A stretch of 64,000 nt of DNA from Candidatus Kerfeldbacteria bacterium (lineage in GTDB: Bacteria > Patescibacteriota > Patescibacteriia > UBA9570 > XYC2-FULL-38-9): the NCBI GenBank assembly GCA_043813585.1, contig JBDRKW010000020.1:1185-65184 (forward strand), given 5' to 3'. The position numbers and the translations under genes are program-made. This document shows positions 1 to 37,123 of the stretch, in pieces. The notes under the pieces are model-generated. The model was given only the letters and a program-made list of their open reading frames with translations, had not been told where the DNA came from and searched no databases. How positions within the stretch are numbered: position 1 is the stretch's first letter; every line of letters starts with the position of its first letter.

Positions 1-1
1 C

Positions 2-223
2 CACACCGACAGCTACGTGTGGGTGACGGGTCCGGATCGGTTCATGTATGACCTCGAGGCGTACGAGGTCCTGGTGGATCCGGGCGAGGCGATCTTCGTC
101 TTCCGGTTCCTGGATGGGACCACGGTGGAGCTCGTGCAGGTGGACGTCGTCACCCACCTGACCGACTGTACGTGGTGCGACCCGAACGGGTTCCACGACG
201 TGCAGATCCACGACGCCGAGTAG
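2..223 (+). CDS. 3' fragment of an acidic secreted (lipo)protein paralog; its start lies upstream of the window
   Basis: The in-frame ORF runs off the 5' edge. Its C-terminus (DLEAYEVLVDPGE..FVFRFLDGTTVELVQVDVVTHLTDCTW) resembles the C-terminal domains of the two downstream paralogs (GDLEAYEACVPNG..WRWLDGTWFEVYTVDVQTDMY). Its GC and codon bias match theirs. Confidence 0.6.
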   Translation, partial: HTDSYVWVTGPDRFMYDLEAYEVLVDPGEAIFVFRFLDGTTVELVQVDVVTHLTDCTWCDPNGFHDVQIHDAE

Positions 224-485
224 ACGGCGTCAACAACGAACACGGACCAATCTGCCCATGACACGGGTGGTGCGGTCCTCTTTTTTTACTGAAATACCGG
301 TGGGTCTTGACCAATCCGCCGGCGTTTACTAAGATTCAATGTCCCTTCAAAACAGCGGATGCAAAGCCACATTATGGCGGGAAAAAGCCTTAGGTTCGCA
401 ACGAACATAGTGCGTTTTCCCTTCATGGCAATAGCCAAGCGGTCCACTTAACGGATCCGAAGGGAGTGGTCGGAAGGAGACAACG

Positions 486-1130
486 ATGACCACCCGCTCT
501 TACTTGATGTCCCTCTTCGCGCTGCTCCTCATCGGAGCGGTGCCGCTGTTCACCTCTTCCTGCGTGCAGGACATCCCGCCGAGCGCCCAGTCGGACGACG
601 ATGCGGCCGATGATGATGCCGCAGATGACGACGCCAGCGACGACGACGCGGCCGGGGATGACGACATGGTCAACCCGCTCGACCAGGACGGCGACGGCTA
701 CATGGTCATGAACGACTGTGATGACGCGGATCCGGACGTCCACCCCGGCGCCGACGAGGTCCTGGGCGACAACGTCGACAATGACTGCGACGGTGAGGGC
801 GCGTGCCAGGAGGTCATTCCGTACGACCTCTGCCCGCCCGACGACGACTGCATCACGGTCGCCGGCCTGGTGCACGCCGCGCCCGGGTACTACCTGTACG
901 TCGCCGACCTCGAACAGATGTTCGGCGGCGAGTGCTACGAGGTGGAGATCCCGCGTGGGACCTCGCTCTGGGTGTGGCGGATCGTCGACTTCGGCACGTG
1001 GGTCGAGACCTACAACGCCGGGTACGACACCGACATGTACCAGTGCGACGACGCCGACCCGCCCGAGGGCTACGACGTCTGTCCCACCGGCGAGTGGGAC
1101 GAGCTCTGGTTCCACGCAGCCGCGATCTGA
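486..1130 (+). CDS. secreted acidic lipoprotein-like protein with a MopE-like putative metal-binding motif and a Trp-rich C-terminal domain
   Basis: An AGGAG RBS sits about 7 nt upstream of the ATG. The protein has an N-terminal hydrophobic signal with a lipobox-like FTSSC. It continues with a poly-acidic tract (DDDAADDDAADDDASDDD), then DQDGDGY..DCDD..PG..E..DNDCDGEG (the pattern of the Pfam MopE-type metal-binding motif). The C-terminal domain is conserved with the downstream paralog. Confidence 0.8.
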   Translation: MTTRSYLMSLFALLLIGAVPLFTSSCVQDIPPSAQSDDDAADDDAADDDASDDDAAGDDDMVNPLDQDGDGYMVMNDCDDADPDVHPGADEVLGDNVDNDCDGEGACQEVIPYDLCPPDDDCITVAGLVHAAPGYYLYVADLEQMFGGECYEVEIPRGTSLWVWRIVDFGTWVETYNAGYDTDMYQCDDADPPEGYDVCPTGEWDELWFHAAAI

Positions 1131-1263
1131 CCGTTCGGCCCTGTTCTACTGCAATCTCTGCACTAGGACCGGGCCTTCTTTTTTTACTAGATAATGGGCT
1201 AAAATTAGCGTTTTAGGCGTTTTTCGTAAGAAGTGGGTGATTATGCCGTATTTTAATTTACCC

Positions 1264-1291
1264 TTGACAAAACTGTATTTTTTGCTATAAT
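1264..1291 (+). promoter_or_regulatory. sigma70-like promoter (TTGACA-N16-TATAAT) upstream of the second acidic lipoprotein gene
   Basis: TTGACA is at about 1264-1269 and TATAAT at about 1286-1291, in the AT-rich intergenic region between the paralogs. Confidence 0.5.
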
Positions 1292-1460
1292 GGCGGGTCA
1301 ATTTTACGAGGAAGTAGAGTTGGCAATAGTGCTGCCAGAATGATTATGTGGCGGGAGAGTATCCTATTTTTTACTTAAAAAATAGCGTGTTCTCTCTTCA
1401 CATGAAGGGGCCTCAGTCAAAAGGTCCTGTGAAGGGATGGTCAAACCAATGGAGGACACC

Positions 1461-2276
1461 ATGACCAATAGCAGCGTTTTCTTCCTGTACTTCAGCCTAT
1501 CGCTGTCCGCCCTCCTCTTCGGAGGGGTGGTCGGGAGCGGATGTGTCTCGGACAACGAGGTCAAGGCCTCGGACGACGACTCCGCGGACGACGACGACTC
1601 CGCCGGGGACGACGACTCCGCCGGGGACGACGACTCCGCCGGGGACGACGACTCGTCCGACGACGACACCACCGGGGACGACGACTCCGCCGGGGACGAC
1701 GACTCGTCCGACGACGACACCACCGGCGACGACGACTCGTCCGACGACGACTCGTCCGACGACGACACCACCGGCGACGACGACTCGTCCGACGACGACA
1801 CCACCGGCGACGACGACACCACCGGGGATGACGACGATTCGACGCCCCCCGTGGACGCGGACGGCGACGGCTACACCGCCGACGTCGACTGCGACGACGG
1901 CAACGCCGAGGTCAACCCTGGCGCGCTGGAGGCGTCCAACGGCGTGGACGACGACTGCGACGGCAGCGTCGATGAGGTGGGCTACGTCCACTACATCGAC
2001 TTCTGCGGTGGCAGCCCCGACTGCTTTACGGCAGCCGCGCTCGTCCACACCCCGACGTACGTGTACATCACGGGCGTGGGGTTCATCGGGGATCTCGAGG
2101 CCTACGAGGCCTGTGTCCCCAACGGCACCGCGTTGGCCGTCTGGCGCTGGCTGGACGGCACCTGGTTCGAGGTCTACACGGTCGACGTGCAGACCGACAT
2201 GTACCCCGTCACCGACATCGACCCGGCCGACTACGGCTGGGACGAGGCCTGGTGGCACGCGGAAGCCATGCCCTAG
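1461..2276 (+). CDS. secreted acidic lipoprotein-like protein paralog with a long Asp-rich repeat tract, a MopE-like motif and a Trp-rich C-terminal domain
   Basis: The start was chosen at the ATG at 1461 because GGAGG lies 5 nt upstream; the track ORF starts at 1437. The signal peptide has a lipobox-like VGSGC. About 12 heptad repeats follow (DDDSAGD, DDDSSDD, DDDTTGD). The motif DADGDGY..DCDD..NPGA..E..DDDCDGS is present. The C-terminus (WRWLDGTWFEVYTVDVQTDMY..WDEAWWHAEA) is homologous to the upstream paralog. Confidence 0.8.
   Translation: MTNSSVFFLYFSLSLSALLFGGVVGSGCVSDNEVKASDDDSADDDDSAGDDDSAGDDDSAGDDDSSDDDTTGDDDSAGDDDSSDDDTTGDDDSSDDDSSDDDTTGDDDSSDDDTTGDDDTTGDDDDSTPPVDADGDGYTADVDCDDGNAEVNPGALEASNGVDDDCDGSVDEVGYVHYIDFCGGSPDCFTAAALVHTPTYVYITGVGFIGDLEAYEACVPNGTALAVWRWLDGTWFEVYTVDVQTDMYPVTDIDPADYGWDEAWWHAEAMP
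1580..1830 (+). repeat. in-frame tandem 21-bp repeat array encoding D-D-D-S/T-A/S/T-G/D-D heptads
   Basis: Near-identical 21-nt units (gacgacgactccgccggggac and variants) are repeated about 12 times inside the CDS. Confidence 0.85.
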
Positions 2277-2362
2277 TCGTCAGGGCGACCGGCGCATCAG
2301 CGGCATATCTGATGCACCATCAGAACGATCCGCCGCCTACCAGCGGCGCTCAAGTACGATGG

Positions 2363-2404
2363 ACGGGCCGGATCTCTCACCAGATTCCGGCCCGTTCTTT
2401 TTTT
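2363..2404 (+). terminator. rho-independent terminator after the acidic lipoprotein gene
   Basis: A perfect 10-bp stem ACGGGCCGGA...TCCGGCCCGT is followed by TCTTTTTTT. Confidence 0.7.
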
Positions 2405-2456: not shown

Positions 2457-2485
2457 TTGACAAAACGCAAAAAAACATGTAGAAT
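2457..2485 (+). promoter_or_regulatory. sigma70-like promoter (TTGACA-N17-TAGAAT) for the radical SAM gene
   Basis: TTGACA is at about 2457-2462 and TAGAAT at about 2480-2485, roughly 28 nt upstream of the ATG at 2513. Confidence 0.5.
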
Positions 2486-2512: not shown

Positions 2513-3541
2513 ATGCCTACAGAGAACAACCCCACAACCACAACCAACGCGCCGCTGCCGGTCGATGCCGTCATCGGCATTACCTATAACTGCAACTCCA
2601 AATGCGTGATGTGCGACATCTGGCAGATGAAGCCGCAGGAAGAGATGACCTTGGCAGATTTTGCCAAAATCCCGACCACGCTCAAAGACGTGAACATCTC
2701 GGGTGGCGAACCGTTTTTGCACAAAGATATTGTCGGCATCATTAAAACCGTGCATGAACGCGTACCCAACGCGCGCATTGTCATCTCCACCAACGGGTTT
2801 GCCACCAAGCTGATCGAAATGCGCATGAAGGAGATCGTGAAGTTCATGCCGAATATCCGCATCAGCATCAGCATCGATGGCATGGAGAAGATGCACGACG
2901 AGATCCGCCGCATCCCGAACGGATTCCAGAAAGCGATGGCCACGCTCGACATGCTCAAGAACATGGGCGTGACCGACATCCGGCTGGCATTTACCGTGAG
3001 CACCATCAACGTTGCAGACCTGCCGAAAGTATACGACCTGGCAAACAAGAAAGGCGTGCAGTTCACCATGGCGTTTGCGCAAAGTTCGGATTTTTACTTT
3101 GGCGGGAAGCAAAACTACGAAAACCCGGACCCGAAACTGCTCAAGCAGGGGTTTCAATACGTCGTTACCTCTGAACTCAAATCGCCCGAACCGAAGCGCT
3201 GGGCGCGTGCGTATTTTGAACATGGCCTCTACCAGTTTGCCACCACCGGTAAGCAGCCGCTGGCCGCAAAACCGGGCACGGACTTTTTCTACCTGGACCC
3301 GACCGGCATCATCTACCCGTCGGTCGTGCATTTCCACAGCATGGGGAATATCAAGGACTATGACACCTTTGAAGAACTCTGGAATGCCGGACAAGCCGAA
3401 GAAGCGCGCGCAGAGGTTGAAAAAGACAAGAAACAATACTGGATGATCTGCACTGCACGGTCGGCAATCCGCCGGCATCCGCTGCAGGTTGGAAAATGGA
3501 TACTCAGGAACAAGCTGATGCCGGGCAACGTCTTAAAATAA
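2513..3541 (+). CDS. radical SAM domain protein
   Basis: A CX3CX2C motif (YNCNSKCVMCDIW) lies near the N-terminus, followed by a glycine-rich SAM-binding segment (NISGGEPF). The gene sits at the head of the glycan cluster. Confidence 0.75.
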   Translation: MPTENNPTTTTNAPLPVDAVIGITYNCNSKCVMCDIWQMKPQEEMTLADFAKIPTTLKDVNISGGEPFLHKDIVGIIKTVHERVPNARIVISTNGFATKLIEMRMKEIVKFMPNIRISISIDGMEKMHDEIRRIPNGFQKAMATLDMLKNMGVTDIRLAFTVSTINVADLPKVYDLANKKGVQFTMAFAQSSDFYFGGKQNYENPDPKLLKQGFQYVVTSELKSPEPKRWARAYFEHGLYQFATTGKQPLAAKPGTDFFYLDPTGIIYPSVVHFHSMGNIKDYDTFEELWNAGQAEEARAEVEKDKKQYWMICTARSAIRRHPLQVGKWILRNKLMPGNVLK

Positions 3542-3562
3542 CCCTGTCGGCAGAGCATCACC

Positions 3563-4969
3563 ATGATCATAAAAAACATAACAATATACCAGCCCGGCCG
3601 TCCGAGGGACCTCGCCATTATCGCGACCATCTTCTGGCTGGGCGGAATCGGCGCGCTCGCGTTCATCAACCCGCTCTACATGGTGTTTGCCGTTCTCGGC
3701 ACGGCAGCGGTTCTTGTATTCGGCGCCCGGCCTGTGGCTGCGCTCTATGCCATGGCTGCCTCGTACCCCTTCATCCAGCTGGAGATCGTCTACGGCGCCT
3801 TCAACGCGCCGATCGTAGACGTGATCGCCATACTGGCGCTGGCGGCATGGGCGTTCCGCATCCTCTGGTTTCTCATGGTGGACCGGGAGCGGTTGAAAGA
3901 GCTGCGGTTTCCGCTGGTCTGGTTTTACGCGGCATGGGTGATCATCGCCGCATTATCGCTCATTAACACCTGGGACATCGCGCTGAGCTTCAAATACCTT
4001 CTGCGGCCGCTCGCGTTTTTCTACCTGGCCTACGTGTTTGTCACAGTCAACACGATCCTGAACACCAAAACGCTGTGGCGCGTGCTATTCGTTTTATATA
4101 TTGTAGGCATTGCGGTGGCGCTCTACGGCCTGTACGGCTTCTTGACCGTGGACGTCAACTCCTTCCTGGACCGCCGCGTGGTCCCGCTGCCGATTTTCGG
4201 CATGAACCCGCTGGGTGGAAACCAAAATATCATTGCAGACGTGATGGTGACCACCATCCCGATCGGGTTTTTCCTGATGCTTCATATCCGCGGCACCAAG
4301 CGGCAGAAGATGCTGTTTCTGGGCCTGCTGCTGCTGATCGGCGTGAACCTGATGACTTTTTCCCGCAGCGGGTGGCTGGCGCTCATTGTCATGCTCGGCA
4401 CGCTGCTGGTGCTTCAGTACCGCCACTTCCTGAAAAACATTGCGCGCTATACGGTCATCGCATGCATTGTTGCGCTGCCGCTGTTCGGCTACATGTTCCT
4501 GTTTTCTACGCAGGAGCAGGTGCAGAGCTCGAACGTCAACCGCCTGATGCTTAACGACATTGCGCTTGAAATGGTGACCGAATATCCGCTGCTGGGGCAG
4601 GGGGCAGGCACGTTTGTTACGCGCGTAGAGAGCAACCCGCTCTATATCAGGGAATTCGGCGCGCCACTGGATGCGCACGGGTTCATTCAAAAAGTCGCAG
4701 GCGAACTGGGCCTGCTCGGGCTGGCGGCGTACCTGGCGTTCATCGGGGCGGTGCTTTGGTTCATTTACAAGGAATACAGGCGCCATGACCGCGCGGACAA
4801 CTGGTCGTATCTTTTGGCATCGCTGTTGGTGATGGTTGTCGGAACGGTATTTTTCCAGCTGTTCCAAACCTCTTATTTTGTGGCGAAGCTGTGGTTCCCG
4901 GTCGGCGTCGCGATCGCGGCCGTCTACCTGGCGCGGAGGAATACGAAACTTGATATGTCCGGCGTATGA
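3563..4969 (+). CDS. O-antigen ligase/Wzy-like polytopic membrane protein
   Basis: The protein has about 10-12 predicted TM helices and a Wzy_C-like segment (NLMTFSRSGWLALIVML). It is embedded among glycosyltransferase genes. Confidence 0.6.
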   Translation: MIIKNITIYQPGRPRDLAIIATIFWLGGIGALAFINPLYMVFAVLGTAAVLVFGARPVAALYAMAASYPFIQLEIVYGAFNAPIVDVIAILALAAWAFRILWFLMVDRERLKELRFPLVWFYAAWVIIAALSLINTWDIALSFKYLLRPLAFFYLAYVFVTVNTILNTKTLWRVLFVLYIVGIAVALYGLYGFLTVDVNSFLDRRVVPLPIFGMNPLGGNQNIIADVMVTTIPIGFFLMLHIRGTKRQKMLFLGLLLLIGVNLMTFSRSGWLALIVMLGTLLVLQYRHFLKNIARYTVIACIVALPLFGYMFLFSTQEQVQSSNVNRLMLNDIALEMVTEYPLLGQGAGTFVTRVESNPLYIREFGAPLDAHGFIQKVAGELGLLGLAAYLAFIGAVLWFIYKEYRRHDRADNWSYLLASLLVMVVGTVFFQLFQTSYFVAKLWFPVGVAIAAVYLARRNTKLDMSGV

Positions 4970-6045
4970 ACAAGAGAATTGTTCACATTATCGACAGCCT
5001 CGAAATAGGCGGCGCTGAATGGATCATGGCCGAGCTGGCAACAGGCATGGACCGGTCGGTGTTTGATGTTGAAGTGATATGCCTGACGCAGCCAAAGTCC
5101 AGGGTCATCATGGAGTACCTGAAAAAAGGCGGGGTGCCGGTGCGGATTATCGAGAAGAAGAACAAGCTCGGCATCGGCATGTTCGAGCACCTGACAGATT
5201 TATTGCAGAAAGAACACCCGGAGATCGTCCACACCCACCTGTTTGCCGCCGACGTCTGGGGCGGGATGGCCGCATCTTCTGCGCATGTGCCGGTGATTAT
5301 CTCCACGGAACACGGCGTGAATAAGGATTTCGGCTGGATGAAAAACCGCCTGAAGTGCTGGGTAAACGGCAAACGCGATGCGATCGTAGCAGTATCGGAA
5401 AGCGTGCGGGCGTACGCGCTGGATGCGTGTTCAACAAACACGCCCGACAAAGTGAAGCTCATCCCGAACGGTATTAATATGAAGCGCTTCTACCGCGAAG
5501 CACGCAAGCGTCCCGCGAAAACGCCGGTTATTGCGGTTGTGGGGCGCCTGGAACCGGTCAAAGGGCATGCAGAGCTGCTGGCCGCGCTGCCAAAGGTGAA
5601 AAATGATTACCGTTTGCGCATTGTGGGCAGCGGTTCGCTGCGCGAGAAACTGGAACAGCAGGTAGCAGACCTCGGCCTGCAGGGCCGCGTCACCTTTGAA
5701 AACGCGCGCGAGGATGTGGAGCAGGTCTACGCAGAAGCGGATATTGTGGCGGTGCCGTCATGGTGGGAAGGCCTCGGACTGGTCGCGATTGAGGCGCTTG
5801 CAAGCGGATGTGCAGTGCTGGCCTCTAATGTGGAAGGGCTGCACGACGTGGTGCACGATGAAGAAACCGGCCTGCTGGTGGACATGAACGATCCGGACGC
5901 AGTTGCCTCAAAGCTGGATCGGTTGCTCGAAGACGCGGATTTGCGGTTTGCGCTCACAACAAAAGGCCAACAGCATGTGAAAACGCTTTACAGCCTTGAT
6001 GCGATGGTGGGCGCCTATACAACCCTGTATAATGAGCTGACATGA
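4966..6045 (+). CDS. glycosyltransferase, family 4 (GT-B fold)
   Basis: The C-terminal motif EGLGLVAIEALASGCAVLAS is typical of GT4 donor-binding domains. There is a 4-nt ATGA overlap with the upstream gene. Confidence 0.85.
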   Translation: MNKRIVHIIDSLEIGGAEWIMAELATGMDRSVFDVEVICLTQPKSRVIMEYLKKGGVPVRIIEKKNKLGIGMFEHLTDLLQKEHPEIVHTHLFAADVWGGMAASSAHVPVIISTEHGVNKDFGWMKNRLKCWVNGKRDAIVAVSESVRAYALDACSTNTPDKVKLIPNGINMKRFYREARKRPAKTPVIAVVGRLEPVKGHAELLAALPKVKNDYRLRIVGSGSLREKLEQQVADLGLQGRVTFENAREDVEQVYAEADIVAVPSWWEGLGLVAIEALASGCAVLASNVEGLHDVVHDEETGLLVDMNDPDAVASKLDRLLEDADLRFALTTKGQQHVKTLYSLDAMVGAYTTLYNELT

Positions 6046-18142: not shown

Positions 18143-19300
18143 ATGATTGCACCGCATGGAAACAAACTGGTAGAACGCGTTCTGCCGGAAGACAAGATTG
18201 AAGAAGTTAAAAAAGAGGCCGCGTCGCTCGTCAGCATTACGCTCAATGAGGAGCAGATTAAAGATGTGAAAAATATCGCGCGCGGCGTTTTGAGCCCCCT
18301 GACCGGGTTTATGAACCGGGCGGATTTTGAGGGCGTTGTTGACAACATGAAGCTGGCAAGCGGCATTACCTGGTCGATCCCGTTCGTGCTGCATATTTCC
18401 GAAGAGGAGGCAGCCAAGATGAAGAGCGGCGACCGAATTGCGCTGGTGGGCGGAGACGGTGAGCTGGTTGCGCTGATGACGATCGGCGACATTTACGATT
18501 TTGACGTCGAGCACGTGGCAGAGAAGGTATTCGGCACGGCTGACAACGAGCACCCCGGCGTGGCGCGGTGGCGCAAAATCAGCGGACGCAAACTGGTGGG
18601 CGGCGACATTGACCTGGTCGACAACTCGAAAGAGCCGTTCTATGACTATAACCTGGATCCGGCTGAAACGCGGTACCTGTTCAAGCAATACGGGTGGAAC
18701 ACGGTTGCCGGGTTTCAGACGCGCAACACGCCGCATCGCGCGCACGAGTATTTGCAGCGGTGTGCGCTCGAGCTGGTGGACGGCCTCTTCATCAACCCGA
18801 TCATCGGCGAAAAAAAAGCCGGCGATTTCCAGGATGACCTCATTATCAAGACATACGACTACCTTATCAAGAACTTCTTTCCGAAAGAACGCGCCACCTT
18901 TTCGATTTTGCCGGCACGCATGAACTACGCCGGCCCGCGCGAGGCAATCCTGCACGCTATCATCCGCAAGAACTTCGGCTGTACGCATTTTGTCGTCGGC
19001 CGCGACCATGCAGGCGTCGGCAATTACTACGGTTCCTACGACGCGCAGGAAATTTTCGACCAGATCGAGGATATCGGGATTGAAATTATGAAGTTCGAAC
19101 ATTCGTTTTTATGCAAGAAATGCGACACGATGGCGACCACGAAAACGTGCGGCCATACGGACGCCGACCGCGTCTGCCCGTCGGGGTCGCTGATACGCGA
19201 ACTGCTCTCTGCCGGAAAGCCGGTTCCGGAAGATATCATGCGCAAGGAGATTGTTGACCTGCTTCTCGCGGAAAAAAATCTATTCGTTACGGAAGACTAG
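18143..19300 (+). CDS. sat: sulfate adenylyltransferase (ATP sulfurylase)
   Basis: The protein has the GFQTRNTPHRAHEYL (QTRN and HRAH) motifs of ATP sulfurylase. It is 385 aa. Confidence 0.9.
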   Translation: MIAPHGNKLVERVLPEDKIEEVKKEAASLVSITLNEEQIKDVKNIARGVLSPLTGFMNRADFEGVVDNMKLASGITWSIPFVLHISEEEAAKMKSGDRIALVGGDGELVALMTIGDIYDFDVEHVAEKVFGTADNEHPGVARWRKISGRKLVGGDIDLVDNSKEPFYDYNLDPAETRYLFKQYGWNTVAGFQTRNTPHRAHEYLQRCALELVDGLFINPIIGEKKAGDFQDDLIIKTYDYLIKNFFPKERATFSILPARMNYAGPREAILHAIIRKNFGCTHFVVGRDHAGVGNYYGSYDAQEIFDQIEDIGIEIMKFEHSFLCKKCDTMATTKTCGHTDADRVCPSGSLIRELLSAGKPVPEDIMRKEIVDLLLAEKNLFVTED

Positions 19301-19301
19301 G

Positions 19302-20321
19302 ATGCTTGAGATGGTGGATTTCAAAACGCACATCAAAGATGTCGCGCCGGCATCCGTGCTTATCATCCACCACTGGGACGCTGACGGTTTGAGCTGCACC
19401 GCGTTGCTGCTGAACTGGCTGGCGGAGCATGCGCCTGAAACAACCGTGCAGACCATGTACCCGCAGATCAACAACTATTTCCTGACCGAGAGCGAGTATG
19501 AATCCATCCGCGACGGCGGGTATGACGGTATCGTCTGTGCTGACCTGAATTTTTCCGTTGACGTCATCGAAGCGCTGGAGCAGATCGCATCGCCGGTATT
19601 TGTTTTTGACCATCATTCCCAGACAGAAGGCATAAACCGTCCCGGCATCCAGGACACATCGTATCCCGGCTGTTCCGCCCTGGTGCACGAATATTTATTC
19701 GGCGGAGAACCGTCGCTCCTTGGGGTTCTCGGAATGGTTGGCGATATGGAAGAGCGGCTGAAAGAACGCGCAGGCCACTACGAGGCGGTCGAGGCGGTCA
19801 TGGAGAAAGAATCGCTTTCGTTTAAGGATATTCACCACATGACGAGGCTCATTGATACGTCGTATATTATTAAGGACGAGGACGCCATCGCGCATGCGAT
19901 TGAGGTATTGCGAAAAGATCCGAAGGACGCGCTTACCGATGAACAGATGATCGCAAACGAGCAGCGCATTGCGGATGAGTTGGAGCGCGAAAGCGGCAAA
20001 GAGCTGGAGCGGGTGACGGACAAAGTGCTGTTCCTGCCGATTGAATCGGAGATGAGTCTGATTTCGGCAATCACGCGCACGCAGTCGCGCAAGCATCCGG
20101 AAGCGGTGATTGTCACCGAACAGCGGCGCGGAGATGATGCGAGTTTTTATGTGCGAAGGAAAGACGCGGAGATCGACCTGGGCTGCGTGGCAGAGCTGGC
20201 GAAAGGAAAAGGATATGTTGCCGGAGGAAAGCCGGAAGTGACAGGAATTGTTCTGCCGGCCGCTGATCTGGACGGGTTCCGCAGCGAAGTGTTTGAATTG
20301 TTAAAACAGGAGCTTGAGTAG
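19302..20321 (+). CDS. DHH-family phosphoesterase, candidate 3'-phosphoadenosine-5'-phosphate (pAp) phosphatase/nanoRNase (NrnA-like)
   Basis: The start was re-assigned to the ATG directly after the sat stop. The protein has DHH motifs (HHWDADG; FDHHSQ) and a DHHA1-like C-terminus. Its position between sat and cysC suggests pAp recycling. Confidence 0.6.
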   Translation: MLEMVDFKTHIKDVAPASVLIIHHWDADGLSCTALLLNWLAEHAPETTVQTMYPQINNYFLTESEYESIRDGGYDGIVCADLNFSVDVIEALEQIASPVFVFDHHSQTEGINRPGIQDTSYPGCSALVHEYLFGGEPSLLGVLGMVGDMEERLKERAGHYEAVEAVMEKESLSFKDIHHMTRLIDTSYIIKDEDAIAHAIEVLRKDPKDALTDEQMIANEQRIADELERESGKELERVTDKVLFLPIESEMSLISAITRTQSRKHPEAVIVTEQRRGDDASFYVRRKDAEIDLGCVAELAKGKGYVAGGKPEVTGIVLPAADLDGFRSEVFELLKQELE

Positions 20322-21714
20322 TATGAATAACAGGAAGGTCATCGTCATCGGACTGGATTGCGGAACGCCACAGCTTATTTTTGATCAGTATAAAAAAGAC
20401 CTGCCGAATATTTCGGCGATGATGGAGCAGGGAACGTGGGGCAGGCTCAAAAGCACCATACCGCCGATTACCATTCCGGCGTGGGCATGCATGACCACAT
20501 CAAAAACACCGGGCGACCTGGGAGTGTACGGGTTCCGTTCGCGGACGCCAGGCGCGCCGTATGACGCCATGGATATTGCGCACGCGGGCCTTATTAAAGA
20601 AAAACGCATCTGGGATTACCTGGGTGACGCCGGCAAGAAGGTCGGCATGCTCGGGGTGCCGCAGACCTATCCTGTGAAGCCGGTGAACGGCATGATGGTA
20701 TCGAGCTTCATGACACCGAGCACAAAGGAAGAGTTCGCCTACCCGGCAGAATTAAAACAGGAGATCCTCGACATGGTCGCGCCGGATGATTACATTTTTG
20801 ACTTTGCAAACCGGTCCGCAGAACCGCCGGAACAAGTGCTGGAAAAAATCTACACCATGACCGACCAGCGGCAGAAGATCTTCAAGCACTGGATACGGAA
20901 CAAGGAGTGGGACTTCCTCATGATGGTGGAGATGGGCGTGGACCGCATCCACCACTACCTGTGGCAGTACATGGATCCCACGCACAAGGATTATGAAGCC
21001 GGCAACCCTTTCGAAAACAAGATCCGCGAATACTACATGCACATCGACGCGTTCATCGGAGAGGTGCGCGAAATGGCGCCGGCCGACACCGTGATCTACG
21101 TCGTTTCCGACCACGGAGCAAAACGGATGGATGGCATGTTTGTCATCAACGAATGGCTGATTGAAAACGGCTACCTGGTGCTGAAAGAATTCCCGAAGGA
21201 ACCGACAAGCATCAACGCATGTGACGTGGACTGGAGCAAAACGAAGGCATGGGCCTGGGGCGGATTTTACGGGCGCCTGTTTTTGAACATTAAAGGACGC
21301 GAACAGCAGGGCATTGTTGATCCGGCAGACGCGGATGCGCTACTAGACGAACTGCGCTCAAAACTGATGGAAGTGAAGGGTCCAAACGGAGAAGAAATGA
21401 AGCATCTTCTCGTCAAACCGGGCGAATTGTATGCGGATGGGCGTGGCGATTCGCCAGACCTCATGATTTTCTGGGGCGACCTCTACTACAAACTGGCGGG
21501 CACGCTCGGGTACAACTCCTTGTATATCGAAAAGGACGACCGGGGCCTTGATTTCGGCGTCCACGACTGGTATGGTGTGTACTTGCGGCATGATCCGAAG
21601 GCCAAGGGATTGGGCGAAAAAGACGGCCTCAGCATCCTGGACATCACTCCAACCTGGCTGAACGACTTTGGCATGGATGTGCCCGGCGATATGAGAGGAA
21701 CAATTATTGAATAA
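20314..21714 (+). CDS. alkaline-phosphatase-superfamily protein, type I phosphodiesterase/nucleotide pyrophosphatase family
   Basis: The N-terminus [29 protein letters not shown] carries the metal-binding D and the T/S nucleophile typical of PF01663-type enzymes. Confidence 0.65.
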
Positions 21715-22336
21715 TATGAAACAGAAAGCGACAAACATTACATGGCATGAGGGCGACGTCACAAAGGAAGACCGGGAGAAGCTGCTCGGCCAAAAGGGCG
21801 TGGTGATATGGTTCACCGGCCTTTCAGGATCGGGCAAGTCAACGCTGGCAGTTGAGGTAGAGAAAAAATTGTTTACACAGGGCCGTGCGTGTTATCGTCT
21901 TGATGGCGACAACGTCCGCCACGGGATCAACAAAGACCTTGGTTTTTCAGATGAAGACCGCACGGAAAACATCCGCCGCATCGGCGAGGTGGCAAAACTG
22001 TTCGCCGACGCCGGCATCATTGTGATGACATCATTCATCTCTCCGTTCCGGGCTGACCGCGACATTGTTCGCGCGCTTTTGCCGGAAGGGGAATTTATTG
22101 AAGCGTACGTGCAATGTTCGCTTGAAGAATGCGAACGGCGCGACCCCAAAGGGCTCTATAAGAAAGCGCGTGCGGGCGAGATTCCCGATTTTACCGGCAT
22201 TGATTCGGCATATGAGGAACCGATGGACCCGGAGATTGTTGTGGCGACGGATAAAATGGGCATTGAAGAAGCGACCGATTTCCTATTAAAGGAGCTCGGA
22301 CGCCTAGGAGTACTCAATGGCGAAGTTCAACAATAG
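21707..22336 (+). CDS. cysC: adenylylsulfate (APS) kinase
   Basis: The protein has the P-loop [16 protein letters not shown], is 209 aa, and has a conserved APS-kinase core (DGDNVRHG..). Confidence 0.9.
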
Positions 22337-24053
22337 AGCAAAGGCGTTTGTTTTCAGCCTGATTATCTGCGCAGCGCTTGCGGTTGGTTTTGGCGTCATT
22401 TATTTCAACGACAGCGCCTGGGGTACCTGGGGCGATGACTCTGCCGGCTATATTTTCCTGGCCGGGCGCATGTGGGAAGGGGAGCCACTAGTGTACCTGG
22501 ATGAACTGGCAGCCAAAGGGCTGGAGTTTTTCGGCGACGAGAAGTTGGCGCGCTGGCTGACGCCGACGCACCACCAGTTTATTAACACCCGTGGCGTGAT
22601 CGCTTCAAAATACCCCGTTGGTGCACCGATGCTCCTGCTGGTCGGAGCGGCGCTTACAGGCAAGAGCGAAGGGTTTTATCTGGTAACGCCTGCACTGGCA
22701 GCCGCAAACCTTGTATTGTTCTATTTTCTGGCCGTTCTCGTCATACCCAGGCATCGGTACCGCCATTTTATCGGCTTGCTGTCTGCCGGAATGCTGGGAT
22801 TATCGGAACTGTATTACAACTACGCCATTGCGCAGCCGATGCGCGAGATCCCGTCCGTGACATTCCTACTGCTGATCGCCATCTTATTGCTGCGCGGCAT
22901 CCGGTTGCTGAAAAATACAGAACGTAAAAAGGCCGCAACGCCGTTTTATTTCATTTTCGCCGCCGGCTTGGCATTTGGCATGGCGTTCAATATCAGGGAG
23001 ACGAGCGCGCTCATCCTGCCCGGAGCCGCATTGTATGTCCTGTTGGCGCTGTGGCCGAAAAAAGAATCCACGCAGAAGTACATCAAGCAGCTGGCGCTGG
23101 TCGGGTTGTCATTTTTTATCGCGGCCGCGGTTGCCGTGATCCCCACAGCGCTGAATTCGTACAATATTTCACAGGACAAGGAGGTCTTCAAGGCCCGCGA
23201 CACAAGCAATGTGGTCGTACTGCCGAATATCGGCCATGTCGAATCATTAAGCGTGCAGAACCTGTTCGACAACCAGGGCAAGTTCCGCCCCGGCACCGGC
23301 TCGCTGCCGCACTATTGGGGCGTGATGCAGGATGTTGTTCCTGTCCCGTACTTCTTGGTGTTTGTCGCGCTTGGTATCTTTTTCTTGTGGAAGGAATCCA
23401 GGCCGAAAACGGCGCTCCTGGTCGGCTGGGCCGTCGGCATTCTTATCATCTTTTCCATTTGGGTGAACCCGTACTCGCGCTACATTATACCGATGTTCCC
23501 ACCGATGATATTCCTGGGCGTATACGGCTTGTTCGGTTTTTTCCAGGAGCTCGTGCCGAAATTGATTAAGAAACGATGGGCAATGACCATCCTTGCGCTG
23601 GGCGTGTCAGCCACCTTTTTGGTGGCCTACCAGCCGGTGTTTGCGGACGTGAAAGAAAATCTTAAAATCGATGTCCATCGGTATAAAGCGATATCTCACA
23701 AGGATTTGGAAACGTTAATCGATCTGGGCGACGAGCTGGTGCTTTCCGACCAGCCGGTGCTGATGTTTTCCGGCGTCTGGCAGTACGGAACGAGCGAAAC
23801 GCTGGAAGCTCATACCGGTTTAAAGACCGTCCGCTTTCCGCTGGAACAGCGGTTTGATTTTAACGAAGGCCGGGTAAACGAATTCTTCGTTTCAATGCTT
23901 TCGGACGGGTACACGCTCTATGTCTGGGTGGACGAAACATCCTCGCCAGAGCTGTTTACATGGCTTGAGATGTATGATACGAATCTCGTGGACACGCTGG
24001 ACTTCACCTTCCAGCCGCAGGTCCGCATTTACGAGGTCAGAGCTCAACGATAG
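22317..24053 (+). CDS. GT-C family membrane glycosyltransferase (ArnT/PMT-like)
   Basis: The protein has more than 10 TM helices and a DD motif in the first extracytoplasmic loop ([10 protein letters not shown]). It has a C-terminal soluble domain of about 130 aa. Confidence 0.6.
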
Positions 24054-26404: not shown

Positions 26405-26435
26405 ACTATCAGTTAATGTCCGCTTAACCTCTCCC

Positions 26436-26519
26436 GTGCATTTCCATCGCGTGCTATTCTCGTCTTCGCTCGACGCACGCTACATGGAAATGCACTCGCG
26501 AGGATTCGCGGACAGTATT
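26436..26519. repeat. structured inverted-repeat element, copy 1 (12-bp outer stem, 6-bp inner stem, 20-nt loop, conserved 3' tail)
   Basis: The outer stem is GTGCATTTCCAT...ATGGAAATGCAC. The conserved core is cgcgtgctattctcgtcttcgctcgacgcacgctac, and the tail is tcgcgaggattcgcgga. The same core, with a different but perfectly complementary stem, occurs at about 53803-53885. Confidence 0.7.
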
Positions 26520-31849: not shown

Positions 31850-31921
31850 GTGTAGGGGGATCATGCAAGTGAAGTGGCTGCTGTCTTGAGAAACCGGAGA
31901 TCATCTGCTACACTATGTCTG

Positions 31922-33988
31922 ATGAAATTCAAGGAACTATCCTACAACATCAGTATAGCGGCAGCCGTTGTCAGTGCCATTGCCCTGGCTTGGTTGGCGC
32001 TTTTTCCGACCCCGTTAGACCTGTTTTCATGGACCGTACCCGCCTGGCTGCTTGTGGCATTCCTCGCCGCACTTTGTTCCGGAAGCATAGGGCTGGTGGC
32101 GCGGCAATCGGACCGCCGTTTTGGTTTTCTCCTCGCGTTGCATATTGTCCCTGCGCTCAGCATCAGCCAGGCCAGGGGGATGCTCAGCCCTGGAACCGAC
32201 GGCCAGGAGCTCGTGCTGAGCGTGCTGTGGGCTGTTGCGGTGGTGGAGCTGGCGTACGAAGCGCGCCCGCAGTTGTTTGAAGGCCTTACTTGGAAAGCGC
32301 TGACCGCGTTTGCCGTATCGCTAACAGTCATCTGGAGTGTGTTTGTCCATCTTGCGAGGTTCAATGCCGACTCCATACTCATTAACGGATTCCTGGTGCT
32401 TGCCTGGGCTGCCGTTGTCCGCTGGATGCCCGATAGGGGCGAAGGAAAAGATAATAAAAAACAATTCATCCATTTGGTCTGGACTGCGTGCATCGGGATC
32501 ATCGTCTTATGGGGCGCATGGCTGCGCATTGCGGCGGTGGATACGTTCGCATTCCAGAATGACGAGTACTACCACGTTGAAGCGGCTGCCGGCTACCTTG
32601 AAACAGGGGAATACAAATTATGGAATTTCGTTTTCAATGAGCCGGAGGAGGAATACGATCGCGCATGGGTCTACACATGGCAGGTTGCGCAAAGCTTTAA
32701 ATTATTCGGCTTTTCAGAAGTAAGCGGACGCCTGCCGACGCTGTTATGGGGGCTGTTTTTTCTGGCGCTGGTGCCGCTGTTGGCCTATTCATGGACACGA
32801 TCACGAGGTGTGGCATTCTTGGCAACCGCAATCGCGGCATTTGATAACGGATTCGTATGGGCATGTACCTACTCGCGCATGTATACCATGCTCCAGGTGC
32901 TCATACTGGCGGGCGTGTGGTGTTTCTGGATGGCGCTGCGCAATGTCAAGCGCAAGCGGCCCTGGACGCGATGGCTCTGGCTTGCCGCAGCCGTTCTACT
33001 TGTTCTGGCAGCTGCGTACATTCATGCAAGCGGCCTCCTCATCTTCGGGGGCATGGCCGTAGCGATATGGCTGTTATATTTCTTCAACAGAACAAACACA
33101 TGGTACAGATTGTTGTCCATTCTTTTTATCGCGGGCTCGTTTGCGGCAATTCTTTACAGCAAACTCCAGTCGCAGATTTGGCTGAATCTCATCACTGTAC
33201 GCAAAGAAGCGGCCGTGCAGTATCTCGCGTATCCGTTCCAGGACCTGGTCATCACCATACTCGGCATGATCCTGTTTATCGTGGCATTCATTGCGTACAA
33301 AAAAGAGAAGCTCCCGACATGGCTTATCATCGCCGGTTCCACAACAATCCCAGCAGTGATCTATTTCACCTACTTTGCCGGAAGGTATGGCGCCAGAAAA
33401 TACAGCCTCTTTTTCCTTGTCTTCATCTACATCGCAATCGCATGGGTATGGAATCGGGTACTGCGTCAGTGGACCGCACATTCATGGAAACGATTGGTTA
33501 TTGGTACGTTCATTACAGTATGGGTATTTGTTCCGATTTCCATCCCGGGCGTGGAGGGATCGTTCGTGACGCGGACGGCGCGTGCCGACCTGACCTATAG
33601 AGATGTAGGCCTGCATGATTACAAAATCGCCTATGCAGCTGTTCAGGAAGAGGCGAAGACAGATGACGCCATCGTCATTCTTGCGCCGCGGTCCTATTAC
33701 CTCTACCGGACGGATGTTGATTATTTCATCATGCCGGTGAACAACGCCATGACAGTGGAGATGCTCGAAGAGGTGATGACGCAGAAAGCACGCGGCTGGG
33801 TTATTTGGCCGCGGTTCAAGGAGTTTCACCTCTCCAGGAAATTCACCAATTATGTCAAAGACAACCTGCACCCCTTTGAAGGCACAAAAGGAACGCAGGT
33901 TCGCGTCTATTACTGGGACCGCGTCCAGGACGCGCTCGATCAGATTGATCAGATTAAAGAGCTGGAATCGGAACGCACTGAAGAATAG
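31922..33988 (+). CDS. GT-C family membrane glycosyltransferase (ArnT/PMT/GT39-like)
   Basis: The start was tentatively set at the ATG at 31922; the track has a GTG at 31874. The protein has more than 12 TM helices and a DE motif in the first periplasmic loop (AFQNDEYYHVEAAAGY). A large C-terminal soluble domain follows. Confidence 0.65.
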   Translation: MKFKELSYNISIAAAVVSAIALAWLALFPTPLDLFSWTVPAWLLVAFLAALCSGSIGLVARQSDRRFGFLLALHIVPALSISQARGMLSPGTDGQELVLSVLWAVAVVELAYEARPQLFEGLTWKALTAFAVSLTVIWSVFVHLARFNADSILINGFLVLAWAAVVRWMPDRGEGKDNKKQFIHLVWTACIGIIVLWGAWLRIAAVDTFAFQNDEYYHVEAAAGYLETGEYKLWNFVFNEPEEEYDRAWVYTWQVAQSFKLFGFSEVSGRLPTLLWGLFFLALVPLLAYSWTRSRGVAFLATAIAAFDNGFVWACTYSRMYTMLQVLILAGVWCFWMALRNVKRKRPWTRWLWLAAAVLLVLAAAYIHASGLLIFGGMAVAIWLLYFFNRTNTWYRLLSILFIAGSFAAILYSKLQSQIWLNLITVRKEAAVQYLAYPFQDLVITILGMILFIVAFIAYKKEKLPTWLIIAGSTTIPAVIYFTYFAGRYGARKYSLFFLVFIYIAIAWVWNRVLRQWTAHSWKRLVIGTFITVWVFVPISIPGVEGSFVTRTARADLTYRDVGLHDYKIAYAAVQEEAKTDDAIVILAPRSYYLYRTDVDYFIMPVNNAMTVEMLEEVMTQKARGWVIWPRFKEFHLSRKFTNYVKDNLHPFEGTKGTQVRVYYWDRVQDALDQIDQIKELESERTEE

Positions 33989-35112: not shown

Positions 35113-36165
35113 TCACGTTGATTTCAAATATGCACGCACCTCGACACTCGGATCGCGGGTAAACCGTTTCATGCTGTCCTTCATGTCGCTTTTTTTACGC
35201 GTTGAGTAGATCACGCGGCGTTTGCGGAGCATTGTTGGCGCAAGCAGGAACGCTGCCCCGTAGCCTCGCATTGCCGTGAGAATCATCATCGGCTTGCTCA
35301 GTTTTCTGCTGTGTGCGGCGTTGGCGCCGGCGCTTTTCTTTCTATTTCCTGCATACTGCATATACGCAAAAAAACGGCGATAGAGCAGGGCGATTTTTTT
35401 CAGAAGAACCGTCCAAGGGAAGAGCTTTATAGCGATTAGTAGCTGGTTGCGCGTGATATAATAGGTTTTAAACGCAGACATGGCGCCGGAGGATTGCGAA
35501 TGGAAGTGGTACACGACCGATTTCGGCTCATACATCACGTTCCAGCCGTACAGATGCGCGCGCATTCCCCATTCCGCGTCTTCCCCGTATGAAAAAAGCG
35601 TTTCGTCAAACGCGCCGCACTCTTCAATAACTTCGCGGCGGACGATAAAGGAAGCGCCGCACGGAGCGAATACTTCATTTGCCTCATTCATTTCATCCGG
35701 CTTCATACCGGTTCCGCGGTGGAATCCGCCCAGGTCCGGAGCGGAGAACATGCCGGTGGACTGGATAACCGGAGGGTTGTCAAAGAGGATTTTCGACGTG
35801 ACCATTCCGGTTTTCTCATTCGCTTCAAGGCGCTGCACCAGGTGATGCAGCCAGTTCGGCCTGATCTCCGTATCAATATTGAGGCAGGCGATATATCGTA
35901 TGTGCGGGTTCCTTAATGCCGACTCAAACCCGATATTATTCCCGCGTGCAAACCCGGTATTCTCCTTCAGCGGAATGAGCTGTACATCAGGATATTTCGA
36001 CCGGATGAATTCCAACGATCCGTCAGTCGAGCCGTTATCAACAATCACAACAGTGAACGGAGTGCCGGCGTTTTTATACAGTGCATCAATGCAGGATTGG
36101 AGGAATTTCCTGCCGTTCCAGTTCACTAGAATGACCGCTGTTTCGGCCGCTTGTTGCGTTTTCAT
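35113..36165 (-). CDS. glycosyltransferase, family 2 (WbbL/rhamnosyltransferase-like)
   Basis: The start was re-assigned to MKTQQ, giving an ATGA overlap with the upstream sulfotransferase. The protein has VILVNWNGRKFL..VVIVDNGSTDGS (GT2) and a DxD-type GED/DAE region. Confidence 0.75.
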   Translation of the reverse strand: MKTQQAAETAVILVNWNGRKFLQSCIDALYKNAGTPFTVVIVDNGSTDGSLEFIRSKYPDVQLIPLKENTGFARGNNIGFESALRNPHIRYIACLNIDTEIRPNWLHHLVQRLEANEKTGMVTSKILFDNPPVIQSTGMFSAPDLGGFHRGTGMKPDEMNEANEVFAPCGASFIVRREVIEECGAFDETLFSYGEDAEWGMRAHLYGWNVMYEPKSVVYHFHSQSSGAMSAFKTYYITRNQLLIAIKLFPWTVLLKKIALLYRRFFAYMQYAGNRKKSAGANAAHSRKLSKPMMILTAMRGYGAAFLLAPTMLRKRRVIYSTRKKSDMKDSMKRFTRDPSVEVRAYLKST

Positions 36166-37037
36166 GACAATGTAGATTTTCTGAGCCAGAACCACTGGAT
36201 CGGATAGATGAGGATGGCTGCGATTGCACGTTTCCATAACGGTTGCTCTGTTTTCCACGTTTCGTCGCAGCGGATGCCGGAAAATGCTTTCCGCCGCTCC
36301 GGCAGCGCCAGCCGGTTGCCGCCGATATTATGGTAGTCATCCATCGTTCTCACGCGCTCGGCATAATCAGCGGGTATTTCAATATTCAGGAAGCGCGCAA
36401 TCGATTCCAGATGGGCCTTCGGTTCCCGGCAAAACTTCTCATAATGAATAAACAGCGTGGGCACGCCGGACTTGCGCACGTAACGCATGATGAGAAAATT
36501 CATCAGCAACCACTTGCCCAGTGAAAGGAAGTAGCTCTTGCGCGGCCCCTGCTTGCCCGAATTGAACGAATTGGCCACCGCGCGCGCGTCGCGGATGACG
36601 AAAATGTTCGTGACCTTCAGGGACGGGTCTGAATGGAGCTCCGCCAGCCGCCCAACCTCTTTGGAAGAATCCAGGAAATATTTGACGCCGGAAGTGCATT
36701 TGCCGGACAGTTCGGAAAGCAGCGCGGCGTTGTCGGATGTATGCGCAAAGCGAAGGTTGCGGTACAGGGGATTGAGCGCGTAATGCAAAATCTTCAGGTA
36801 GTCGCGGACATTCATCCTGTTCTCTATATGGAATTGTTTCTGGTTTGCCGCCGCATCAGACCAGAACGGACATACAGTCATCGCTCTGCCGCAGCTGCAG
36901 GGCACGCCTTCCTCGGCCATGGCATTGAACTTATACATTTCGCCGACGCTGCAGACGCTTGTGCTGCTTGAGATCACCAAATCGAGCAGGGTGGACCCGC
37001 TCCTGCCGATGCCTGAAATATAGATTATTTCGTTCAT
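36162..37037 (-). CDS. PAPS-dependent sulfotransferase
   Basis: The protein has a 5'-phosphosulfate-binding P-loop ISGIGRSGSTLL and a 3'-phosphate-binding region IRDARAVANS. It is 291 aa. Confidence 0.7.
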   Translation of the reverse strand: MNEIIYISGIGRSGSTLLDLVISSSTSVCSVGEMYKFNAMAEEGVPCSCGRAMTVCPFWSDAAANQKQFHIENRMNVRDYLKILHYALNPLYRNLRFAHTSDNAALLSELSGKCTSGVKYFLDSSKEVGRLAELHSDPSLKVTNIFVIRDARAVANSFNSGKQGPRKSYFLSLGKWLLMNFLIMRYVRKSGVPTLFIHYEKFCREPKAHLESIARFLNIEIPADYAERVRTMDDYHNIGGNRLALPERRKAFSGIRCDETWKTEQPLWKRAIAAILIYPIQWFWLRKSTLS

Positions 37038-37061
37038 GCGTTTGTCGTAAAAAGCGTCCAG

Positions 37062-37090
37062 ATTATACTAGATAATAACTCTAATATCAA
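37062..37090 (-). promoter_or_regulatory. sigma70-like promoter on the minus strand (TTGATA-N17-TATAAT) for the sulfotransferase/GT2/GT4 transcription unit
   Basis: The reverse complement reads TTGATA..17 nt..TATAAT and ends about 25 nt upstream of the ATG at 37037. Confidence 0.55.
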
Positions 37091-37094
37091 GGAA

Positions 37095-37123
37095 TTGACG
37101 GTATTATAGGCCTTCTATAGAAT
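37095..37123 (+). promoter_or_regulatory. sigma70-like promoter (TTGACG-N17-TAGAAT), divergent from the one above
   Basis: TTGACG is at 37095-37100 and TAGAAT at 37118-37123. The predicted TSS lies just upstream of the ATG at 37145, giving a short leader. Confidence 0.55.

Follow-up and report, generated by a model that had tools for sequence, protein, structure and literature searches.

The 64,000-nt stretch of a Candidatus Kerfeldbacteria contig analysed here (hereafter the window) opens with an array of three consecutive plus-strand genes, g1, g2 and g3 (positions 1-2404), which appear to encode hyper-acidic surface lipoproteins. An earlier note, made from the letters alone, had placed three paralogous genes here with the first truncated at the window edge, and the open reading frames (ORFs) together with BLASTP identities of 33-44% bear this out. 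The genes and their segments are as follows.

g1, 2-226 (stop codon 224-226), plus strand: truncated at the window edge; the 3' end, 73 codons plus stop, with only the shared C-terminal domain in the window
g2, 486-1130, plus strand: a 214-aa lipoprotein-type precursor, with AGGAGA 6 nt upstream of ATG 486
g2, 486-563, plus strand: signal peptide and lipobox (Cys26 codon 561-563)
g2, 564-680, plus strand: acidic linker
g2, 681-794, plus strand: PF11617 module
g2, 795-1127, plus strand: C-terminal domain
g3, ORF 1437-2276, start taken as ATG 1461, plus strand: a 271-aa lipoprotein-type precursor
g3, 1542-1544, plus strand: codon of the lipobox Cys28
g3, 1545-1853, plus strand: tandem-repeat acidic Ser/Thr linker
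g3, 1854-1964, plus strand: PF11617 module
g3, 1965-2273, plus strand: C-terminal domain

The start of g3 was chosen for the best Shine-Dalgarno sequence (GGAGGA), 6 nt before ATG 1461; 1437 and 1449 are alternative starts. Pairwise BLASTP gave 44% identity for g2-g3 (E 4e-45), 38% for g1-g3 (E 4e-44) and 33% for g1-g2 (E 1e-20), E-values so far beyond chance that the three genes are clear paralogues. NCBI products are present for g1 and g2. From Met8 onward g2 corresponds to MFH1426539.1 (P0001) of a Candidatus Kerfeldbacteria metagenome-assembled genome, on a 351-kb contig, and g1 is identical to the C-terminus of P0006, a 468-aa protein annotated 'partial' on the same contig. The source contig also ends within g1, so the N-terminus of g1 is missing from P0006 too. 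This fuller version of g1 carries at least seven PF11617 modules ahead of the shared C-terminal domain (140.2 bits in seven stretches), as opposed to the single module of g2 and g3. The claim that all three genes have the same architecture thus holds for the layout of g2 and g3 and fails for g1. Two antisense ORFs on the minus strand, 423-1115 (230 aa) and 1497-2258 (253 aa), overlap g2 and g3. We rejected both as genes, since sense codons of the form NNS (third base C or G) automatically leave the matching antisense frame free of stops and long antisense ORFs are then no evidence of a gene.

The predicted signal peptides with a lipobox-like Cys were recovered in g2 and g3. A PROSITE PS51257-type regular expression, in which a hydrophobic h-region is followed by [LIVMFWSTAG]2-[LIVMFYSTAGCQ]-[AGS]-C within the first ~35 residues, matched at Cys26 of g2 (FTSSC), at Cys28 of g3 counted from ATG 1461 (VGSGC) and at Cys17 of P0028, a homologue from a related metagenome contig (L001). 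Both genes also have the long poly-acidic linker that had been described. In g3 it consists of 15.6 copies of an 18-nt unit (1571-1835) encoding DDDS(A/S)G and DDDTTG, and in P0028 it reads DTGTPDTDTPDTDTT. Basic residues number only one to three, and the net charge is -50 in g2 and -80 in g3. Kerfeldbacteria belong to the candidate phyla radiation (CPR) and have single-membrane cells. Judging from their N-terminal pattern, g2 and g3 would be exported by way of the lipobox signal peptide and anchored through the N-terminal Cys, and the flexible linker of Asp, Ser, Thr and Ala would keep the remaining protein off the membrane.

Behind the linker, g2 and g3 each carry one copy of a module of roughly 38 aa with the layout DxDGDGY..DCDD..PG..E..D(D/N)DCDG, which comprises two Dx[DN]xDG loops and one Cys pair and has no conserved His or Met. 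The corresponding Pfam family, PF11617 (Cu-binding_MopE, a putative metal-binding motif), has a gathering cut-off of 27 bits; g2 scores 34.7 bits, the g3 segment without the low-complexity linker 43.6 bits and P0028 52.1 bits. Full-length g3 has no PF11617 match, probably because of its low-complexity linker. With P0006 standing for g1, the motif lies above the cut-off in all three genes, in agreement with the family first proposed. Shuffled sequences yield far fewer of the loops, 0.13 where g2 has two and a mean of 1.25 (maximum 6) where P0006 has 11.

The name of the family suggests copper-handling proteins analogous to MopE and CorA of methanotrophs, and the only match of the module in the PDB is to MopE* (2vov_A, E 1e-3). 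However, this match is limited to residues 1-46, which are unseen in a crystal whose visible N-terminus is Gly47, and the Cu(I) ligands, Kyn130 (Kyn, kynurenine), His132 and His203, lie in the core (PMC3423442). CorA binds copper through Kyn62, His64 and His114 (PMC3912023). The module has no conserved His or Met. A PDB sequence search found no similarity between the array proteins and the MopE/CorA beta-sandwich core with its Kyn/His/His site. The suggestion of MopE-like copper binding is not supported on these grounds, and a copper-handling function is very improbable.

Loops of the DxDxDG pattern bind calcium in EF-hand-like and thrombospondin type-3 repeats. Two such loops and one Cys pair per module point to Ca2+ and not copper; we would expect the ligand of the module of g2 and g3 to be a hard cation, Ca2+ for instance, and its two Cys are probably joined in a disulfide. 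Ca2+ also stabilises MopE and CorA themselves (PMC3423442, PMC3912023). Searches with the thrombospondin type-3 family TSP_3 (PF02412) gave no match to g2 at E <= 1 or to the g3 segment at E <= 0.1.

The C-terminal domain spans 111 aa with five Trp in g2 and 103 aa with six Trp in g3 and has no Pfam or NCBIfam match, which fits its first description as a Trp-rich domain of about 110 aa without a recognised fold. A profile search of 1.84 billion representative proteins matched the domain over its full length only in P0001, P0006 and P0028, so that it is known only from this genome and from the related contig L001. Pattern scans of GTDB genomes and JGI metagenomes revealed no relatives, a word-seeded search with an alignment of four C-terminal domain sequences found nothing, and a scan of viral contigs returned the motif only (residues 3-53) and never the C-terminal domain. 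Weak profile matches to P0007, P0009 and others were rejected as homologues; these are BNR_4-type propeller repeats that share with the domain only a 'G-x-A-x-A-V-W-x-x-x-D-G-T' hairpin. AlphaFold predicts an all-beta domain of eight strands at low to moderate confidence (predicted local distance difference test score, pLDDT, 59), and Foldseek with the predicted domain gave no match below E 0.28. By the evidence of these searches the domain is a clade-restricted orphan. As a lineage-specific, fast-evolving, all-beta unit of ~105 aa, it would form the exposed working end of the proteins, probably for binding.

The spacers between the genes carry the promoters and terminators that had been described, including one promoter-like site that matches the consensus at 12/12 positions and three hairpins with a U7 tail. 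Seven promoter-like sites were found, against 0.9 expected. An initial pattern scan for terminators missed the three hairpins owing to their long or bulged stems, and they were found by folding. The signals, including that of the downstream glycan cluster, are as follows.

244-288 (hairpin 244-278), plus strand: terminator-like hairpin and U-run after g1, weak alone (z -0.8)
307-335, plus strand: promoter-like site upstream of g2, TTGACC-17-TAAGAT, 9/12, a consensus match only
1137-1185 (hairpin 1137-1175, then TTCTTTTTTT), plus strand: intrinsic terminator after g2 (-23.1 kcal/mol, z -4.5)
1264-1291, plus strand: promoter-like site 1 upstream of g3, TTGACA-16-TATAAT, 12/12, with an extended -10 TG
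1320-1347, plus strand: promoter-like site 2 upstream of g3, 9/12 consensus
2361-2406 (hairpin 2361-2397, then T7), plus strand: strong intrinsic terminator after g3
2457-2485, plus strand: promoter-like site of the downstream glycan cluster, TTGACA-17-TAGAAT, 11/12

None of 200 shuffles folds as well as the g2 terminator, and the hairpin after g1 has a TCTTTTTTTAC tail identical to that of the g2 and g3 terminators. From the hexamer positions, g3 would have a 5' untranslated region (5' UTR) of roughly 110-165 nt. Each array gene looks like a separate transcription unit. The spacers are not unusually AT-rich, as had been claimed, but at 42-53% GC lie near host intergenic DNA (mean 43%). Within them, GGCGGG follows each -10-like hexamer (373-381, 1289-1297 and 1347-1355). 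We rejected this combination as a special motif, as it is not enriched across the window (14 matches against 14.6 expected). No significant repeats are shared among the array spacers, and no Rfam family reached its gathering score in the window, with only chance miRNA matches in 1-2600.

The array genes stand out most in their composition. Their GC content of 63.5-68.0%, against 52.2% in the rest of the window, agrees with the contrast first reported, and GC at third codon positions (GC3) reaches 0.92 in g1, 0.90 in g2 and 0.94 in g3, compared with 0.634 +/- 0.068 (maximum 0.776) in the 48 other ORFs. The excess is confined to coding sequence, the spacers being host-like. The repetitive acidic composition of the proteins had been one of two causes suggested for it. 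Yet GC3 is even across 20-codon windows from the first codons on and is high in every segment (signal peptide 0.79-0.89, linker 0.82-0.98, module 0.87-0.97, C-terminal domain 0.93-0.96), and because this includes the non-repetitive C-terminal domain, the acidic repeats do not account for it. Nor do the array genes simply intensify the codon preferences of the host: Glu is encoded by GAG in 92% of cases in the array against 41% in the host (host GAA 59%), for Ala, Thr, Val, Leu and Pro the choice moves to codons ending in C (GCC, ACC, GTC and CTC favoured), and the effective number of codons (ENC) is 34-35 against 47 for the host.

To place these genes among relatives, loci were recovered from GTDB genomes and JGI metagenomes with the radical-SAM protein encoded just downstream as anchor. 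This gene belongs to a trio directly following the array.

2513-3541, plus strand: radical-SAM gene, with a Pfam match and below the cut-off for every NCBIfam family
3563-4969, plus strand: Wzy_C-domain membrane protein (PF04932, 57.3 bits; NCBIfam matches sub-threshold only)
4966-6045, plus strand: GT4 glycosyltransferase, the third member of the trio, conserved in related loci

In nine lineages, GC-rich genes for secreted Cys/Asp-rich proteins lie directly upstream, on the same strand, of the Wzy_C, radical-SAM and GT4 trio. These are the window, L001, the Kerfeldbacteria-like L002, L003, L083 (equivalent to L082) and L084, and the Magasanikbacteria L009, L010 and L012; in all eight loci besides the window the radical-SAM gene occurs with Wzy_C and the GC-rich secreted genes. 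Across the nine, the island genes have a GC content of 0.63-0.72 and GC3 of 0.76-1.00, whereas the flanking genes have 0.32-0.59 and 0.22-0.77. L001, the JGI contig that carries P0028, has five genes with GC3 0.92-1.00 before radical-SAM, Wzy_C and GT4, a trio order the same as at 2513-6045 of the window, and its radical-SAM protein is 70% identical. Elsewhere the trio order is permuted between lineages, which suggests that the adjacency is more than frozen synteny. In L012, low-GC DNA lies on both sides of the island, so that a chimeric assembly is excluded. Among 136 loci with radical-SAM relatives, such blocks occur essentially only in this CPR group; a GC-rich block beside a distant radical-SAM relative in L104 was set aside as a different phenomenon, as it consists of gmd/fcl sugar genes. 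A search of the open-access literature turned up no account of CPR islands of this kind.

Where the N-terminus can be read, most island products are secreted or lipoprotein-type, and lipobox-like N-termini are readable in island proteins of L012 and L083 as well. They carry MopE, Dicty_CTDC or TSP_3 Cys/Asp modules and varied C-terminal domains; the L010 protein equivalent to those of the array carries TSP_3 repeats instead (31.6 bits). The array genes would lie at the proximal end of an island, conserved upstream of the trio, that encodes secreted proteins and lipoproteins. The island extends over at least 9.7 kb in L083 (1-9700), over 1-6900 in L001 and over 500-7000 in L012. That of L083 includes genes that are not Cys-rich, and among its products are a coiled-coil membrane protein of 601 aa, a lipoprotein of 333 aa and a secreted protein of 571 aa with a counterpart in L001; the genes of these three types have GC3 of 0.87-0.95. 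L002 (CAYFNF010000002.1) and L003 (CAZMTW010000006.1) are labelled 'uncultured Gammaproteobacteria'; their radical-SAM proteins are 68-75% identical to the Kerfeldbacteria gene product and have the same neighbours, and the taxonomic label looks doubtful.

The related genomes keep the GC-rich island though flanking orthologues are only 47-76% identical. Identity is 27-33% for positional counterparts of the island in L001 and L083 and 50-76% for flanking proteins. With divergence this fast, synonymous sites must be saturated, and yet GC3 shows no shift toward that of the host. L082 and L083 differ at one position in 8,128 nt, so that a comparison of mutation spectra between them is uninformative. 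Contigs end inside the island in 6/9 lineages (the window's own contig and those of L001, L002, L003, L009 and L010), with a run of N inside the island of L003 as well; these assembly breaks seem to arise through repeats, strain variation or GC-dependent coverage.

One explanation for the composition, raised in the earlier note, is that the genes came recently from a GC-rich donor by horizontal transfer and were then duplicated locally. The codons do look foreign (the GAG share and ENC given above), and the domain repertoire of the islands is Myxococcota-like (MopE motif, Dicty_CTDC Cys repeats, TSP_3, and ASH/Ig plus MopE). Relative synonymous codon usage (RSCU) of the window island correlates at 0.95 with ordinary genes of L163 and L164, non-CPR genomes of 72-73% GC that carry the closest MopE-repeat proteins, at 0.96 with the other CPR islands and at only 0.64 with its own flank, although any GC-driven process would yield the same pattern. 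However, a donor search among 5.8 billion proteins found none above about 51% identity; the closest non-CPR relatives of the g1 repeat array are 45-53% identical, within the repeats only, and their genomes are uniformly 62-73% GC. The C-terminal domain was not found outside the clade, the paralogues are merely 33-44% identical, the island keeps its position and has collinear counterparts where flank identity has fallen to 47-76%, and the spacers resemble the host in GC and carry promoters of the type of the neighbouring host cluster. No donor, a conserved position, collinear counterparts and host-like spacers together contradict a recent transfer, which is improbable. BLAST of the island against non-CPR MopE proteins is dominated by repeats, so that the monophyly of the CPR island proteins is not decidable from that comparison. 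Given the foreign-looking codon usage, an old foreign origin is possible, and an old origin of the island from Myxococcota-like bacteria is plausible.

Alternatively, translational or mRNA-level selection might impose an extreme codon bias on very highly expressed surface proteins. An extended -10 consensus promoter, strong Shine-Dalgarno sequences and terminators, separate units and apparently long 5' UTRs resemble those of S-layer or major-lipoprotein genes, and the GC excess is found only in coding sequence, where C-ending two-fold codons are strongly preferred. However, the bias is no stronger form of host usage: Glu flips from GAA to GAG, and the preferred codons of Ala, Thr and Pro change. 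Further, the islands of L009 and L010 have GC3 of 0.80-0.85 although GC-ending codons are rare in their flanks (GC3 0.22-0.30), and non-repeat, non-Cys-rich genes of L083, such as that of the coiled-coil membrane protein, share the bias. We therefore regard expression-driven selection as unlikely.

A third explanation is that old foreign or native genes are kept GC-rich by a process specific to the locus. Candidate processes are gene conversion biased toward GC, in a recombination hotspot that is under diversifying selection, and the repeated replacement of alleles from a GC-rich pool that CPR strains share. Island GC is near constant (0.63-0.72) while the flanks span 0.32-0.59, divergence of the island proteins outpaces that of the flank proteins two- to threefold with GC3 not ameliorated, and the contig ends inside the island in 6/9 lineages are what strain-variable or repetitive regions would be expected to produce. 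As a precedent on the same side we count antigenic-variation loci, of which Borrelia vls is an example, with a GC content well above that of their genome. Against this, the contig ends may merely reflect repeats or GC-dependent coverage, no gene-conversion tracts were found between the paralogues of the window, every gene is a complete expressed unit and not a silent cassette, and GC-biased conversion this strong (GC3 up to 1.00) is not documented in bacteria. We regard a locus-specific process as a tentative possibility. Diversity-generating retroelement targets and cassette conversion were rejected: no repeat resembling a template or variable repeat involves 1-2404, and no reverse-transcriptase domain occurs among the window ORFs. 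Silent cassettes of the vls type were likewise dismissed, the copies being 33-44% identical and each having a promoter-like site, a signal peptide and a terminator.

Extending the locus-specific explanation, the array may, speculatively, be the edge of an undescribed CPR genomic compartment, a vertically inherited, fast-evolving surface-gene island held at ~66% GC by a locus-specific force, with the coding sequences alone kept at GC3 0.8-1.0 while the host drifts over 32-59% GC. Either GC-biased gene conversion in a recombination hotspot or selection acting directly on synonymous sites could supply the force.

The large glycosylation region that had been noted beside the array was also recovered. 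The trio lies directly downstream of the array, and the downstream 50 kb form a glycan island with many GT2 and GT4 glycosyltransferases, rmlABCD, a UDP-glucose dehydrogenase, two flippases and CDP-alcohol transferases. Its Wzy_C-domain protein would belong to the family of O-antigen ligases, polymerases and O-oligosaccharyltransferases. Among the proteins with this domain are the protein O-oligosaccharyltransferases PglL and PilO and, from S-layer systems, WsaB and WsfB, and the S-layer gene sgsE lies near its slg glycosylation cluster (PMC2943079). Pfam and NCBIfam searches of the array detected no S-layer or S-layer homology (SLH) domains. The original proposal that the array products are cell-surface proteins or glycan acceptors stays plausible, as secreted genes stand beside the trio in nine CPR lineages. 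As the likeliest functional link, array proteins and glycan machinery would build the same cell-surface layer. The linkers follow the lipobox directly and, given the Wzy_C O-oligosaccharyltransferase precedent, are plausible acceptor sites; that their Ser/Thr/Ala-rich acidic stretches serve as candidate O-glycosylation sites for Wzy_C-family or PMT-like enzymes of such a layer is conceivable, though we would put it somewhat below even odds.

The glycan island holds further genes of note. A large membrane protein of the PMT-family GT-C type is encoded at 31874-33988 (PF02366, 27.2 bits against a cut-off of 22.7), and a second large PMT/PMT_2-like membrane protein at 22317-24053 scores just under the cut-off; both are possible protein or lipid O-glycosyltransferases. 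ATP sulfurylase, adenosine 5'-phosphosulfate (APS) kinase and two sulfotransferases (18143-22336 and 36162-39141) suggest a sulfated surface glycan in a CPR bacterium. An intergenic element of ~100 nt occurs twice, at 26417-26514 and 53788-53885; the copies are 76% identical, each forms a long hairpin (z -6.5 and -6.7), the stems show compensatory changes (GCATTTCCAT/ATGGAAATGC versus ATGTTTGCAC/GTGCAAACAT) with the apical part conserved, and there is no Rfam match. Near the window end, a T2SSE-family ATPase of the type IV pilus or type II secretion type is encoded on the minus strand at 60883-62496.

Taken together, we read g1-g3 as separately transcribed Kerfeldbacteria genes for hyper-acidic, Ca2+-stabilised, possibly O-glycosylated surface proteins or lipoproteins, and give this reading a probability of roughly 60%. 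Several points weigh against it. The lipoprotein assignment of g2 and g3 stands at the level of a sequence pattern; the n-region of g3 has no basic residue if the start is 1461, the lipobox of g2 has Thr at -3, and no Lgt or LspA is encoded in the window, the rest of the genome not having been searched for them. Ca2+ binding and the disulfide are likewise deduced from pattern, for a motif that has no solved structure, and since the structure models are of low confidence, little weight attaches to the lack of a recognised fold. The gene neighbourhood may simply have been inherited as a block, with no coupling of function. The Wzy_C proteins may act as polymerases, or as ligases on acceptors other than protein, and the Pfam scan of the window gave no match to PglL_A, the domain that marks PglL-type ligases of protein O-glycosylation. 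The radical-SAM protein served as the search anchor and is therefore present in every locus by construction, and L004 (10 kb upstream), L005, L006, L008 and L011 have no island in the sequence at hand. Finally, the GC richness is a conserved, coding-confined property of the whole island whose cause is left unexplained by everything tested.

As proteins, the array products are a fairly ordinary further set of PF11617-motif surface lipoproteins, and annotation should not take the motif for a copper site, nor the C-terminal domain for anything other than a clade-restricted orphan. What is unusual is that the codon usage of a GC-rich genome is kept gene by gene in small CPR genomes of very different GC, an anomaly that spans two phylum-level lineages with host-like spacers despite rapid protein divergence. 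This bears on what determines synonymous GC in bacteria, whether mutation bias, biased gene conversion or selection, and on how episymbiotic CPR cells build and vary the surface that meets their hosts. Further, composition-based binning would probably discard or mis-assign such islands, so that CPR surface proteomes may be under-recovered.

Several known systems share features with the array. In Actinobacteria, lipoproteins O-mannosylated in a PMT-dependent manner have a lipobox followed by a Ser/Thr(/Pro)-rich linker; g3 and P0028 likewise have a lipobox and then a Ser/Thr-rich linker, and the island includes a PMT-family GT-C, but here the linkers are dominated by Asp and the PMT-like genes lie 20-30 kb off. 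Like Borrelia vls, the array consists of tandem surface lipoprotein genes with GC far above that of the genome; unlike vls, it has no silent cassettes and no high-identity repeats, and each copy has its own promoter and terminator.

The module itself is shared with PF11617/MopE-related proteins of GC-rich bacteria, many of them MYXO-CTERM or Myxococcota/Deltaproteobacteria proteins, which have it in tandem as g1 does and whose ASH/Ig plus MopE x4 architecture is common to island proteins of L001 and L083. The array differs from these in its CPR host, in genes of ~66% GC within flanks of 32-59% GC, in the single module after a poly-Asp linker in g2 and g3, in the lack of a MYXO-CTERM signal and in a C-terminal domain not found outside the clade. 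Thrombospondin type-3 repeats (PF02412) are likewise small extracellular modules that pair DxDxDG loops with Cys, but g2 and g3 do not score against that family. MopE and CorA of methanotrophs (PDB 2VOV) are also secreted surface proteins, and MopE* has one copy of the motif at its N-terminus; the array proteins have neither homology to the Cu-binding beta core nor its Kyn/His/His site.

The closest parallel in gene arrangement is Geobacillus stearothermophilus, where the separately transcribed surface gene sgsE likewise lies by the slg glycan cluster with WsaB (PMC2943079). The slg clusters share with our locus rmlABCD, glycosyltransferases, transport genes and a Wzy_C-domain enzyme, which in the S-layer systems is a protein O-oligosaccharyltransferase (PMC2943079). 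In contrast to the self-assembling S-layer proteins, those of the array are small and of lipoprotein type, and their glycosylation is putative. The two also differ in composition, in that the slg clusters are lower in GC than their genome whereas here the protein genes are much GC-richer.

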